Positions 79 through 26,600 of a DNA stretch of 64,000 nt are shown one piece after another (positions within the stretch are counted from its first letter, which is position 1; every line of letters starts with the position of its first letter). The notes beneath the pieces are model-generated. The model searched no databases and was not told where the DNA came from. It saw nothing but the letters and a program-made list of their open reading frames with translations. Source of the DNA: Escherichia coli (GTDB taxonomy: Bacteria; Pseudomonadota; Gammaproteobacteria; Enterobacterales; Enterobacteriaceae). The translations under genes were made by a program, and so were the position numbers. Location: the NCBI RefSeq assembly GCF_003334355.1, contig NZ_QOWP01000016.1, one strand, 5' to 3'.

Positions 79-900
79 GAGTTCCCCGCGCCAGCGGGGA
101 TAAACCGCTCTTCAGCAATGAAATCGTCAAACGAGATTAGAGTTCCCCGCGCCAGCGGGGATAAACCGCACAATTATTCGGTACGACGGGTTCAGGCATT
201 GAGTTCCCCGCGCCAGCGGGGATAAACCGGACCAGAGATGTCGTAGCCGTATTTCGCAGCCGAGTTCCCCGCGCCAGCGGGGATAAACCGAGGAGTTTAA
301 TTTCCAGATTGAGCGCTGGATAGAGTTCCCCGCGCCAGCGGGGATAAACCGGGCACAAAAAAACCCGCGCACGGCGGGTTAATGAGTTCCCCGCGCCAGC
401 GGGGATAAACCGGTGAGTCCGTCAGCGGTGCGCCGCTGCAACACGAGTTCCCCGCGCCAGCGGGGATAAACCGCTCGATCAGGAAAATGAATTCCTGGAA
501 AAAAAGAGTTCCCCGCGCCAGCGGGGATAAACCGCGTGGTCGGGATTGTTGCGCCAGTCTCCGGGGGAGTTCCCCGCGCCAGCGGGGATAAACCGCACGG
601 CTGGCCATTTGAAATACCTGTTGCTCTGTGTTCCCCGCGCCAGCGGGGATAAACCGAACAGCGAGCCAACTGGTTTCAGATTGCTGAAGTGTTCCCCGCG
701 CCAGCGGGGATAAACCGTTCTTGCGGGTGTTGCAAATATTCTTCACGTAGAGCTCCCCGCGCCAGCGGGGATAAACCGGAGCCTGACGAGACTACTGAGG
801 CCGTTCTGTCGAGTTCCCCGCGCCAGCGGGGATAAACCGGACGCCGCCGCCGCGAAGCCGTTTCCGATGTTGAGTTCCCCGCGCCAGCGGGGATAAACCA
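79..900 (+). CRISPR. Type I-E CRISPR array, distal (CRISPR2.3-like): 14 repeats of 29 bp, 13 spacers of 32 bp
   Basis: GAGTTCCCCGCGCCAGCGGGGATAAACCG recurs at an exact 61-bp period (79, 140, 201 ... 872). Variant repeats GTGTT.. at 628 and 689, GAGCT.. at 750; terminal repeat ends ..CCA. Spacers are all different. Confidence 0.97.
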
Positions 901-1370
901 CCATATAACCCGTTATCTCTTTCTCAAGTTTTTATATTAGCAGTACTTGTAATAAGCAACATATCCACGTAACACCTCATGTTCAAAATAGTTCTCCATG
1001 CCAGAGAGGTTCACAATTATCGATACAAAAAATTAAATTTAATCAAAGTGTTATTTGTATGATTCTTAAATCGTTAAGAAATTTTAATCTATTATTTTTT
1101 TAATATTGAATTAATGCCTGTTAATTTTTTCTTTAGAATAACAGTATATTTTTTAAGCTTGTTATTCATTGGTTAAGTAATAAATCTGGAAGTTTGTCTT
1201 TGTTTTGAGGCTAATGAGTGGTTTTACATAACCGCCTCTATACGCTGTTGATGAATAGTTCTTATGAATAAAGATATCCAGTTCATACTTTAAGTGAAAA
1301 TTGATAAAGTGCGATTTGTATTGTCTTTTATTCTAAAGACATCGAGTGTAGTTAATATTCCTTGTAAAAA

Positions 1371-1492
1371 CAGGGATAAACCGAACTAGTTAAAGTTTTT
1401 ATTATGTTCCCTGCATCAGCGGGGATAAACCGGACTTGTTATCATTTTTTAAGTTGTCGAACTTATGTTCCCCGCGTTAGCGGGGATAACCA
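1371..1492 (+). CRISPR. Degenerate mini-array (CRISPR2.2-like): one 5'-truncated repeat and two mutated repeats, two spacers
   Basis: CAGGGATAAACCG (1371-1383), ATGTTCCCTGCATCAGCGGGGATAAACCG (1404-1432), ATGTTCCCCGCGTTAGCGGGGATAACC (1465-1492); 32-bp spacer between the last two. Confidence 0.75.
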
Positions 1493-1538
1493 TTCAGGTA
1501 TGTTCAGGCCGGGCAGTTTCCCGCCCGGCCTTCCTCAC

Positions 1539-3017
1539 TTACGCATTCGACCAGCTCTGGATCGAATCCACATTCCCCAATTCCCCATGCATCACTTCAT
1601 ACGATTTTTTCAGGATCACATCAGTATGTTTGGTTAGGTCTTTGAAAATGCCTTTATTCATCGCGTCGTAGCGTTTGGCATTGCTCTCAATCGGTATAAA
1701 GATATCTTTCACGCGAACCATCTTATCAACAGCCGTTGCGTAATCCGGGTATAGCCCCAGACCTACCGCTGTATTAATCGCTGCTCCCAGACTTGCACAA
1801 CCGTTAATGGCGTTACGGCGTGCCGGAAGGTTGAACACGTCGGCAAAAATTTGCATAAACAGATCGCTGTTCGAACCGCCGCCAGTAATGATCACATGCT
1901 TCGCAAAGTGATTCATTTCATTACACATATTGTCGTAATTGTTCTTCAGCGTTAGCGCCACACTTTCCAATATCGAACGATATATCCATGCGTAATCCAT
2001 GCTGGAATCAAAGCCGATCATAATCCCGCGTTTGTACGGTTCCCACGGATTGGTCAGCCAGTCCAGCACCGTCATCAGCCCATTACAGCCAGGTGGCACA
2101 CTAGAGGCTTTCTTGTTGAGTAAATCTTCCGGTGAAAGATCCTGCGCCCTGGCATCCTGAATTAACGACTCGCCTAACATGTCACGCAGCCAGCTCACCG
2201 TCCACATACCTTTGCGAATACCGTAACCTTCATACAGCAATGTTTGCGGAATAGAAGACATAATCGGCCAGTACGCCACCGGATCTTTCGGCAGTGCTTT
2301 GCCGTTCATCATCAATGCGATGTAAGTGCCAAGAGAAATTACCGCAGTTTCATCATCCAGTAATCCAGCCCCCAGAGCTTCTACCGGTTTATCACTGGTG
2401 GTACAAACAACCGGCAGTCCTGCCGGGAAATGTGTCGCCAGTGCGGCTTGTGGTGTGATATGTCCGAGGACGGTGCCAGGCATTTGCACATCAAACAGCA
2501 TATGACGGGGGATATTAAACTTATCCATTACCGCAGCATCTTCGCTCCATGCCCAGCTCTTATAATCCACCGGCCACTGACCAAAATAGTTGGCGATATT
2601 GTCTTTAAACTCGCCGGTTAAGCGATGCGTCAGATAACCCGAAAAAGAGGTGACATACGCCACGTCAGGATTCGTATGTTCGTAAGGGCGTGTAACGCGT
2701 GCATCCTGCCAGCTAATCAACGGCGCAGCTGGCGTGCCATCGGCTTTCAATAACGCACGGCAGCAACGGATGGATCCCAGACCAATACCGACAATATCTT
2801 CTTTATTCCCGGCAAACTGACTCATCAAATCGTGACCGGCAAAACATAATGATGCCCATAAATCGTCGTCAGGATGTTCTGCAGTATCGGCATCTGGCGT
2901 GTGCATCGGCTGTAATAAGCCTTTACCTTCGCAAACCACATTACCTTCCAGATCGTACATCACCACTTTTGTGCTCTGACTTCCGCCATCAATCCCTATG
3001 ATGTATTTTTTCGACAT
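1539..3017 (-). CDS. ygcE: FGGY-family carbohydrate kinase
   Basis: 492-aa ORF with N-terminal IIGIDGGSQSTKV sugar-kinase motif; length and sequence match my recollection of YgcE. Confidence 0.9.
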   Translation of the reverse strand: MSKKYIIGIDGGSQSTKVVMYDLEGNVVCEGKGLLQPMHTPDADTAEHPDDDLWASLCFAGHDLMSQFAGNKEDIVGIGLGSIRCCRALLKADGTPAAPLISWQDARVTRPYEHTNPDVAYVTSFSGYLTHRLTGEFKDNIANYFGQWPVDYKSWAWSEDAAVMDKFNIPRHMLFDVQMPGTVLGHITPQAALATHFPAGLPVVCTTSDKPVEALGAGLLDDETAVISLGTYIALMMNGKALPKDPVAYWPIMSSIPQTLLYEGYGIRKGMWTVSWLRDMLGESLIQDARAQDLSPEDLLNKKASSVPPGCNGLMTVLDWLTNPWEPYKRGIMIGFDSSMDYAWIYRSILESVALTLKNNYDNMCNEMNHFAKHVIITGGGSNSDLFMQIFADVFNLPARRNAINGCASLGAAINTAVGLGLYPDYATAVDKMVRVKDIFIPIESNAKRYDAMNKGIFKDLTKHTDVILKKSYEVMHGELGNVDSIQSWSNA

Positions 3018-3043
3018 GATTTTTCTCCTGTAATTTTCCTGGC

Positions 3044-25125: not shown

Positions 25126-25140
25126 TTAAGGTGTAATAAA

Positions 25141-26058
25141 ATGACCTGGCTTCCTCTTAACCCCATTCCACTCAAAGATCGCGTCTCCATGATCTTTCTG
25201 CAATATGGGCAGATCGATGTAATCGATGGCGCGTTTGTACTTATCGACAAGACAGGGATCCGCACTCATATTCCTGTTGGCTCGGTTGCCTGCATCATGC
25301 TGGAGCCTGGTACACGGGTTTCGCATGCAGCTGTACGCTTGGCTGCGCAAGTTGGAACATTATTGGTATGGGTGGGGGAAGCGGGTGTTCGTGTTTATGC
25401 TTCTGGTCAGCCTGGTGGTGCGCGTTCAGATAAGCTGCTCTATCAGGCAAAACTTGCTCTGGATGAAGATTTGCGTCTGAAAGTGGTACGCAAAATGTTT
25501 GAACTACGGTTTGGCGAACCAGCGCCCGCCCGACGCTCCGTAGAACAACTCCGAGGTATAGAAGGCAGTCGCGTGCGGGCAACCTACGCACTTCTGGCGA
25601 AGCAATACGGCGTGACATGGAATGGACGTCGCTACGATCCGAAAGACTGGGAAAAGGGCGATACGGTCAACCAATGCATTAGCGCTGCAACTTCCTGTTT
25701 ATACGGCGTAACTGAAGCGGCGATACTTGCAGCTGGTTATGCACCCGCTATTGGGTTTGTGCATACAGGAAAGCCTCTTTCCTTTGTTTACGATATTGCA
25801 GACATCATTAAATTTGACACTGTTGTACCGAAAGCTTTTGAGATAGCGCGTCGTAACCCTGGTGAGCCGGACCGGGAAGTCCGTTTGGCGTGCAGGGATA
25901 TTTTTCGCAGTAGTAAAACATTAGCCAAATTGATTCCGCTTATAGAGGACGTGCTTGCTGCTGGAGAAATACAACCGCCGGCCCCACCTGAAGATGCACA
26001 GCCTGTTGCCATTCCGCTTCCCGTTTCTCTGGGAGATGCCGGACATCGGAGTAGCTGA
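25141..26058 (+). CDS. cas1: Cas1 integrase
   Basis: 305 aa. Confidence 0.95.
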
Positions 26059-26059
26059 G

Positions 26060-26344
26060 ATGAGTATGTTGGTCGTGGTCACTGAAAATGTACCTCCGCG
26101 CTTACGAGGCAGATTAGCCATCTGGTTGTTGGAGGTACGTGCAGGGGTATATGTAGGTGATGTATCCGCAAAAATTCGTGAAATGATCTGGGAACAAATA
26201 TCTGGACTGGCGGAAGAAGGCAATGTGGTGATGGCATGGGCTACGAATACGGAATCGGGATTTGAGTTCCAGACATTTGGGGTAAACAGGCGTACTCCGG
26301 TAGATTTGGATGGTTTAAGGTTGGTCTCTTTTTTACCTGTTTAA
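26060..26344 (+). CDS. cas2: Cas2
   Basis: 94 aa from ATG 26060 ([17 protein letters not shown]), 1 nt after the cas1 stop. Confidence 0.93.
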
Positions 26345-26449
26345 AAACAAAGAATTAGCTGATCTTTAATAATAAGGAAATGTTACATTAAGGTTGGTGG
26401 GTTGTTTTTATGGGAAAAAATGCTTTAAGAACAAATGTATACTTTTAGA
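26345..26449 (+). promoter_or_regulatory. CRISPR leader (crRNA promoter and spacer-integration region)
   Basis: AT-rich 105 bp between the cas2 stop and the first repeat, ending ...ACTTTTAGA. Confidence 0.8.
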
Positions 26450-26600
26450 GAGTTCCCCGCGTCAGCGGGGATAAACCGCCAAAGCAAAAGAAGTCGTCGA
26501 TAATATGCGTGAGTTCCCCGCGTCAGCGGGGATAAACCGGGCGCACTGGATGCGATGATGGATATCACTTAGAATTCCCCGCCCCTGCGGTAGAACACCC
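26450..26600 (+). CRISPR. Cas-adjacent CRISPR array (CRISPR2.1-like): 2 intact repeats plus a degenerate terminal repeat, 2 spacers
   Basis: GAGTTCCCCGCGTCAGCGGGGATAAACCG at 26450 and 26511 (T at repeat position 13, where the distal array has C); degenerate GAATTCCCCGCCCCTGCGGTAGAACACCC at 26572. Confidence 0.93.

Follow-up and report, generated by a model that had tools for sequence, protein, structure and literature searches.

Why should two CRISPR arrays of one locus differ so greatly in their number of spacers, and why should their repeats differ consistently at a single base? The question is raised by a stretch of 64,000 nucleotides from Escherichia coli (contig NZ_QOWP01000016.1 of assembly GCF_003334355.1), the whole of which is here called the window, and which contains a region identified by its open reading frames (ORFs), NCBIfam matches, and annotated relatives as an ordinary E. 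coli CRISPR-Cas locus of type I-E. A sequence-only reading had set an array of 13 spacers lying far from the cas genes against one of two spacers adjoining them, and had reported C at repeat position 13 in the former (C13) and T in the latter (T13). We place at about 0.85 the probability of a joint explanation, in which the asymmetry in size stems from a deletion in the cas-adjacent array, CRISPR2.1, and from the splitting of the distal array, CRISPR2.3, by an insertion sequence (IS), while T13 is a common and most likely neutral polymorphism. The features bearing on this explanation are as follows:

1..74, minus strand: terminus (74 bp) of an IS421/IS186-type element of the IS4 family, cut by the start of the window and ending in ...GCGCTTATG at position 74
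75..85, plus strand: right-hand copy of the target-site duplication, 11 bp, GGATGAGTTCC, made up of the last 4 nt of a split spacer and the first 7 nt of a repeat
79..900, plus strand: leader-distal segment of CRISPR2.3, with 14 repeats at an exact spacing of 61 bp and 13 spacers of 32 nt (w1-w13)
1355..1493, plus strand: degenerate remnant of CRISPR2.2, with decayed repeat units at 1355, 1404, and 1465 and one 32-nt spacer
26345..26449, plus strand: leader of CRISPR2.1, of the K-12 type, whose last 60 nt together with the first repeat are identical in 163 genomes, the leader type being present in 1231
26450..26600, plus strand: CRISPR2.1, made up of two repeats of the GAG..T13 form, each followed by a spacer (w14 and w15), and a terminal repeat that is degenerate

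The repeats were located by searching for the pattern of the type-2 repeat of E. coli, allowing at most three mismatches and with shuffled sequences as the control. In the window this search recovered 16 full repeats at a period of 61 bp, against an expectation of 0 from the shuffles, and a recount bore out the 14 repeats and 13 spacers at 79 to 900 and the two full repeats and two spacers at 26450 to 26600. Tandem Repeats Finder, whose tandem score is interrupted by the spacers, reported the distal array in fragments only. The repeat is 29 nt long, GAGTTCCCCGCG(C/T)CAGCGGGGATAAACCG, with a 7-bp stem and a tetraloop, and the spacers between repeats are of 32 nt. C occupies position 13 in each of the 14 distal repeats, as had been stated. 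The companion statement, which assigns T to all cas-adjacent repeats, is true of the full ones, which begin at 26450 and 26511 and both read GCGTCAGC, but not of the degenerate third one at 26572 to 26600, which departs from the consensus at 9 of its 29 positions and has C at position 13. Nor does the window contain only the two arrays first described: a third, CRISPR2.2, is present as a decayed remnant about 0.45 kb past the distal array, its distance from CRISPR2.3 having been given as 0.5 kb in earlier work (PMC3903273).

Origins of the difference in array size

The distal array is likely to extend beyond what the window displays. The first 139 positions, comprising the IS end, the tetranucleotide GGAT, the first repeat, and w1, recur at 100% identity in about 30 complete genomes of E. 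coli, that of ATCC 8739 among them, and the annotation of the identical junctions reads “IS4-like element IS421 family transposase” next to “CRISPR.” The GGAT at 75 to 78 is the tail of a spacer whose body is located across the IS. In strains LR-64-1 and 214-4, GGATGAGTTCC is found on both ends of the element; the window itself shows the right side only. The target, GGGGATGAGTTCCCC, is GC-rich and lies at a spacer/repeat junction. Insertions of IS186 into E. coli CRISPR repeats, with hot spots and a preference for GC-rich sites, have been described previously (Almendros et al. 2014, PMC3903273), and the region in the window shares with IS186/IS421 insertions in E. coli CRISPR arrays both the GC-rich repeat target and the 11-bp duplication. 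In the case of ATCC 8739, whose CRISPR2.3 bears an IS186/IS421 insertion, the IS/array junction and the first spacer after the IS are the same as in the window.

What might lie on the other side of the element can be gauged from four relatives with the identical junction, namely, LR-64-1, ATCC 8739, 214-4, and A23. Beyond an IS of 1.3 kb, these have 8, 12, 3, and 12 intact spacers, respectively, and all four also have the split spacer, the CRISPR2.3 leader, and queE. On the near side, the order of spacers in the segment corresponding to w1-w13 is homologous in all of them. The window differs from these IS-split relatives in holding only the last 74 bp of the IS, and its set of post-IS spacers differs from that of each relative by deletions and one duplication. 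Taking these findings together, we propose that CRISPR2.3 is a long array split by an IS421/IS186-type element at a spacer/repeat junction, with the window beginning inside the IS, and that the 13 visible spacers are likely to be the older ones, cut off from the leader and promoter by about 1.3 kb of inserted DNA. We infer the upstream half of this array in the source genome from the relatives: before position 1 the order to be expected is IS421 (about 1.3 kb) followed by GAGTTCC, the body of the split spacer, CCAGAAAACATG...GGGGAT, more units of repeat and spacer, and finally the leader of CRISPR2.3 and queE.

An array that continues past the IS would make 13 spacers a lower bound. The earlier figure is thus right for the window but probably not as a total, since the array is split by an IS and continues in four of four relatives. 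The presence of the IS at 1 to 74 also means that the distal segment in the window is without a leader and that its first visible repeat is not leader-proximal; new CRISPR2.3 spacers would enter outside the window, the edges of which can hide parts of arrays. As a further observation, CRISPR2.3 of ATCC 8739 (locus 3944-4887) has the w8-w9 pair duplicated internally, in the order w4 w8 w9 w6 w7 w8 w9, which shows that repeats have mediated duplications in this lineage and not deletions alone.

Whereas IS421 sequence adjoins the first visible repeat of CRISPR2.3 in the window, an AT-rich leader stands directly upstream of the first repeat of CRISPR2.1. The same leader is found in strain OW1E2, where it is followed by a CRISPR2.1 array with w14 as its first spacer, six additional spacers, w15 as its last, and the same degenerate terminal repeat. 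Repeat 2 of the OW1E2 array is of the GAG..T13 form and repeat 8 of the GTG..T13 form, and repeat 2 in the window is a GAG/T13 hybrid of both. Hence, we postulate that CRISPR2.1 was once like the eight-spacer array of OW1E2 and that recombination or slippage involving two of its repeats removed spacers 2 to 7, so that the newest spacer (w14) and the ancestral anchor spacer (w15) remained; a single event of this kind in an OW1E2-like array would produce exactly the structure seen in the window. Across 23 sampled arrays, the number of full repeats in CRISPR2.1 ranges from 2 to 30, with that in the window being the smallest. Given such a deletion and this volatility in size, the asymmetry is uninformative with respect to leader activity. 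Six CRISPR2.1 spacers would have been deleted (by comparison with OW1E2), and the distal segment is a leader-distal fragment; the contrast in size is real but in part an artifact of where the window begins.

The T13 repeat variant

Of 5426 complete E. coli genomes searched for the exact word, 1585 contain T13 repeats; these number 2874 in all, the median per genome being one and the maximum 35. Where sampled arrays with the K-12-type leader can be read as far as their terminal repeat, T13 is without exception the last full repeat of CRISPR2.1 (22/22). T13 is present in all GAG-type leader-proximal repeats in 6 of the 23 arrays, namely, those of the window, EC5, OW1E2, MDK9L1, LR-64-1, and WS0115A, and runs of up to 11 consecutive T13 repeats with different spacers occur (WS0115A). 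The CRISPR2.1 leader followed by a T13 first repeat was found exactly in 163 of the 1231 genomes with this leader; the CRISPR2.3 leader followed by a T13 first repeat was found exactly in none of 4083 full-length matches, the best of which have one mismatch. Further, C13 and T13 repeats occur together within single natural CRISPR2.1 arrays. Position 13 is also T in the two better-preserved units of the CRISPR2.2 remnant, those at 1404 and 1465 (their sequences being GCATCAGC and GCGTTAGC), and hence T13 is not confined to the cas side.

The absence of T13 from the first CRISPR2.3 repeat and its occurrence at both ends of CRISPR2.1 uphold the claim that the arrays have evolved separately. This separate evolution is real and has already been published, with the cas genes, leader, and CRISPR2.1 constituting an exchangeable module and CRISPR-II being more clonal (PMC3903273). 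We propose that T13 represents the ancestral state of the oldest full CRISPR2.1 repeat and that, in one sublineage, it is leader-proximal as well. With each acquisition duplicating the first repeat, T13 would then be copied into every new unit of CRISPR2.1 only; repeats are array specific because each new one is copied from the array's own first repeat. Candidate routes by which T13 might have reached the leader-proximal repeat include gene conversion, recombination with another array, and recurrent C>T mutation. A collapse of the array followed by regrowth was also considered as its origin and was set aside, as it does not fit arrays that keep GTG..C13 units between blocks of T13.

A parallel is offered by the type-2 repeat variants CRISPR-A and CRISPR-T (Diez-Villasenor et al. 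2013, PMC3737337), which, like T13, are single-base variants tied to the leader/cas module and spread by repeat duplication; they differ from each other at position 2, whereas T13 concerns loop position 13. The E. coli repeat consensus printed in the same paper (...GCTGACGCG...) already has the T13 base, although we did not find T13 in the literature as an explicitly discussed, named variant. Unequal array sizes, array-specific repeat single-nucleotide polymorphisms (SNPs), and IS186-type insertions are all documented in E. coli, and there is nothing mechanistically new in this locus; such features result from array growth by duplication of the first repeat and from shrinkage by repeat-repeat deletion. 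The distal array has SNPs other than that at position 13. Its repeats include both GTG (“CRISPR-A”) and GAG (“CRISPR-T”) types, the former at 628 to 656 and 689 to 717, together with one GAGC variant at 750 to 778 and, at 872, a terminal repeat that ends in ...CCA. These GTG, GAG, and GAGC variants recur at homologous positions in relatives.

The SNP had been placed in the repeat hairpin recognized by Cas6e. It is indeed inside the hairpin, but on folding, position 13 falls in the GCCA tetraloop, as its second base, and outside the stem. The C13 and T13 versions (GCCA>GUCA) are predicted to have the same 7-bp stem and the same fold, at −15.1 kcal/mol each, and the hint of an effect on Cas6e is correspondingly weak. 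Substitutions in the 4 nt between the inverted repeats were reported by Goren et al. (PMC5039180) to reduce adaptation by no more than about threefold, and these nucleotides were called dispensable. Hence, T13 most likely affects neither adaptation nor the processing by Cas6e and would be neutral.

Two other interpretations of the difference between the arrays have to be weighed against these results. One is that the distal leader is the more active, such that the distal array expanded and the cas-adjacent one remained small. The 13 versus 2 spacers within the window speak for it, but relatives with the same first and last CRISPR2.1 spacers hold eight, the size of CRISPR2.1 is volatile (2 to 30 full repeats in 23 arrays), and the distal segment in the window, apart from being leaderless, consists of old, shared spacers; we consider it highly improbable. 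The other takes T13 to be a functional specialization, by which Cas6e or Cascade would handle the cas-adjacent CRISPR RNAs differently, e.g., in processing rate or loading preference. It can draw on the location of the SNP within a hairpin bound by Cas6e and on its being a one-locus SNP, as judged from the 0 of 4083 genomes with T13 as the first CRISPR2.3 repeat. Nevertheless, T13 is a loop base that leaves the stem and predicted energy unchanged, the loop nucleotides are dispensable for adaptation (PMC5039180), and C13 and T13 repeats are mixed inside single CRISPR2.1 arrays. Moreover, most T13 genomes have it in the oldest full repeat only (the median being one), a pattern suggestive of drift and not of design, and we give specialization very little credence.

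Some points also count against the joint explanation that we favor, of a deletion in CRISPR2.1, an IS-split CRISPR2.3, and a neutral T13. The leader-proximal half of CRISPR2.3 in the source genome is deduced from relatives, and no complete RefSeq E. coli genome has the exact pair of arrays in the window, or either one with its full set of spacers, the best matches reaching 88.7% (distal array) and 94.3% (cas-adjacent array), such that the history of deletion is reconstructed from cousins. In addition, OW1E2, LR-64-1, and WS0115A retain two GTG..C13 repeats between T13 blocks. The comparison with other E. coli arrays yielded shared spacers, in OW1E2, LR-64-1, ATCC 8739, 214-4, and A23, but no identical array; the arrays in the window are still useful as strain-typing markers.

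The cas operon and its surroundings

The region runs from the queE side through CRISPR2.3, the CRISPR2.2 remnant, ygcE...cysJIH, hok/sok, cas3-cse1-cse2-cas7-cas5-cas6e-cas1-cas2, the leader, and CRISPR2.1 to iap, with the cas genes and CRISPR arrays transcribed on the plus strand. Its genes and flanking features are as follows:

17458..17614, plus strand: antisense RNA sok, from a hok/sok toxin-antitoxin module located between cysH and cas3 (Rfam RF01794, 103.7 bits)
17694..20360, plus strand: cas3 with a premature stop, CAA>TAA at codon 44 (Q44*), window positions 17823-17825
20775..26344, plus strand: cse1, cse2, cas7, cas5, cas6e, cas1, and cas2, all full-length ORFs with a single terminal stop in each translation
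26621..27658, minus strand: iap, an ORF that is the conserved flank of CRISPR2.1 and is annotated as iap in all relatives

All eight cas genes match NCBIfam type I-E equivalog models above the cutoff, and the content of the operon (cas3-cse1-cse2-cas7-cas5-cas6e-cas1-cas2) is complete, yet cas3 has a stop at codon 44. The locus shares with the K-12-type I-E locus (cas-E2/cas-EK, leader L2/leader-T, CRISPR2.1/2.2/2.3) the gene order, the flanks (iap, cysH, ygcE, and the queE side), the 29-nt repeat with its 7-bp stem, the 32-nt spacers, and a K-12-type leader. It departs from that locus in its private cas3 nonsense codon, its two-spacer CRISPR2.1 with T13 repeats, and its IS421-split CRISPR2.3. 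The codon-44 TAA is found in 0 of 1066 complete genomes with the same type of cas3; judged by this comparison, it is private to the strain or else a sequencing error. Unless it is such an error, the strain would probably be interference defective but adaptation competent.

Between the window (17600 to 26450) and ATCC 8739, the cas regions share 99.9% identity. A CRISPR2.1 array of the T13 type occurs also in OW1E2, LR-64-1, and WS0115A, but those of their cas regions that were compared show only about 98.5% identity to that in the window. That the cas genes are ATCC 8739-like while the array is OW1E2-like hints at a recombination breakpoint near the leader or the array. The presence of hok/sok in the E. 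coli cas locus has been noted previously (PMC3903273). At gathering thresholds, Rfam gave no CRISPR-DR family for the repeats in the window and returned sok only.

Spacer targets and the pflB-matching spacer

The 15 spacers were searched together against phages and plasmids, the listing covering 40 of the 82 records for phages and 40 of the 51 for plasmids. Of the searches proposed by the sequence-only reading, against phages, plasmids, and the genome itself, the outcome was a set of matches for four spacers:

230..261, plus strand: w3, matching the host gene pflB at 32/32 positions, flank CCG
291-322: w4, matching Salmonella plasmid AnCo3 (about 106 kb, nonmobilizable) at 30/32, flank AGG
352-383: w5, matching a rho-independent terminator between two tail genes of T1-like phages at 29/32, flank ACA
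596-627: w9, matching lambdoid phages HK629 and phiV10 at 30/32, flank AAG

The other eleven had no match at an E value of ≤1 among the phage and plasmid matches listed, and no spacer matched elsewhere in the window at ≤8 mismatches. Mobile-element spacers with a protospacer-adjacent motif of the AAG type are thus present, in the form of w9 (AAG in HK629) and w4 (AGG). A phage origin of w3 was rejected, as its match in ON470599 is flanked by the host genes ycaO-focA-pflB-pflA-ycaD; the other two phage matches are annotated as pyruvate formate-lyase/formate C-acetyltransferase and were treated as host DNA. Likewise, its “plasmid” matches are mostly to large nonmobilizable records (0.26 to 4.9 Mb) in which pflB is annotated, and these were taken to be chromosomal.

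Although w3 has a perfect chromosomal protospacer, it is not classed as an autoimmune spacer, for its flank is the nonpermissive CCG. In experiments this repeat-derived “self” motif, which belongs to the “stable” class, supported no interference and triggered no priming (PMC6568314, PMC4678831). With this flank, w3 is expected to be harmless, and this harmlessness may be the reason why it survives. Fourteen complete genomes have w3 in CRISPR2.3, and about 5415 of 5426 retain the matching site in pflB. An interference gene is disrupted in 13 of these 14 genomes and in the window, i.e., in 14 of 15, through at least five independent events:

Window-equivalent 24176-24178: IS3::cas5e, an event shared by ten w3 genomes
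13C1065T: IS3 in cas3
81EVA: IS3-family deletion spanning cas3 to casA
WS0115A: IS1 in the 3' end of cas6e, with loss of the last nine Cas6e residues
Window: cas3 Q44*

The remaining carrier, GmM062, has w3, pflB, and a cas operon annotated as fully intact. Seven relatives lack w3 but have the same IS421 junction; six of them are intact, and in the seventh, cas3 contains IS1. At the level of genomes, disruption differs between those with and without w3 (Fisher p = 0.0006); at the level of rough lineages, the figures are 5/6 versus 1/4 (p = 0.19). Given the CCG flank, these comparisons of genomes are no more than suggestive of an association between w3 and the inactivation of cas genes.

One could go further and suppose that w3 is or was autoimmune and drove the loss of interference, here through cas3 Q44*, such that the locus would be decaying and not merely polymorphic. 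The 32/32 match to pflB, the near-universal conservation of its protospacer, and the genome-level excess of disruption (14 of 15 with w3, by at least five independent events, against 1 of 7 same-junction relatives without it) all favor this view. Stern et al. in 2010 reportedly found self-targeting spacers together with degenerate CRISPR-Cas loci; pflB and cas3 here likewise combine a perfect chromosomal match with an inactivated interference gene. Unlike in such cases, however, the flank of w3 is the protective CCG, with which autoimmunity is not expected, there being neither interference nor priming (PMC6568314, PMC4678831). GmM062 has w3 and pflB alongside a fully annotated operon, 10 of the 14 disrupted genomes go back to the single IS3::cas5e event, the lineage-level p value is 0.19, and IS disruption of cas-E is common in E. 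coli in any case (PMC3903273). Accordingly, we regard autoimmunity as unlikely overall, and as a cause of cas3 Q44* it was downgraded in view of the CCG flank, the intact operon of GmM062, and the loss of significance across lineages.

Returning to the explanation by deletion, IS insertion, and neutral polymorphism, we note that the pflB self-spacer, which occurs nearly exclusively with broken cas genes, is a small lead in its own right. One doubtful but distinct proposal is that w3 might be costly despite CCG, e.g., when cas is derepressed, with lineages repeatedly either breaking an interference gene or deleting the spacer. If this were true, CCG-flanked self-matches would not be fully silent in vivo.

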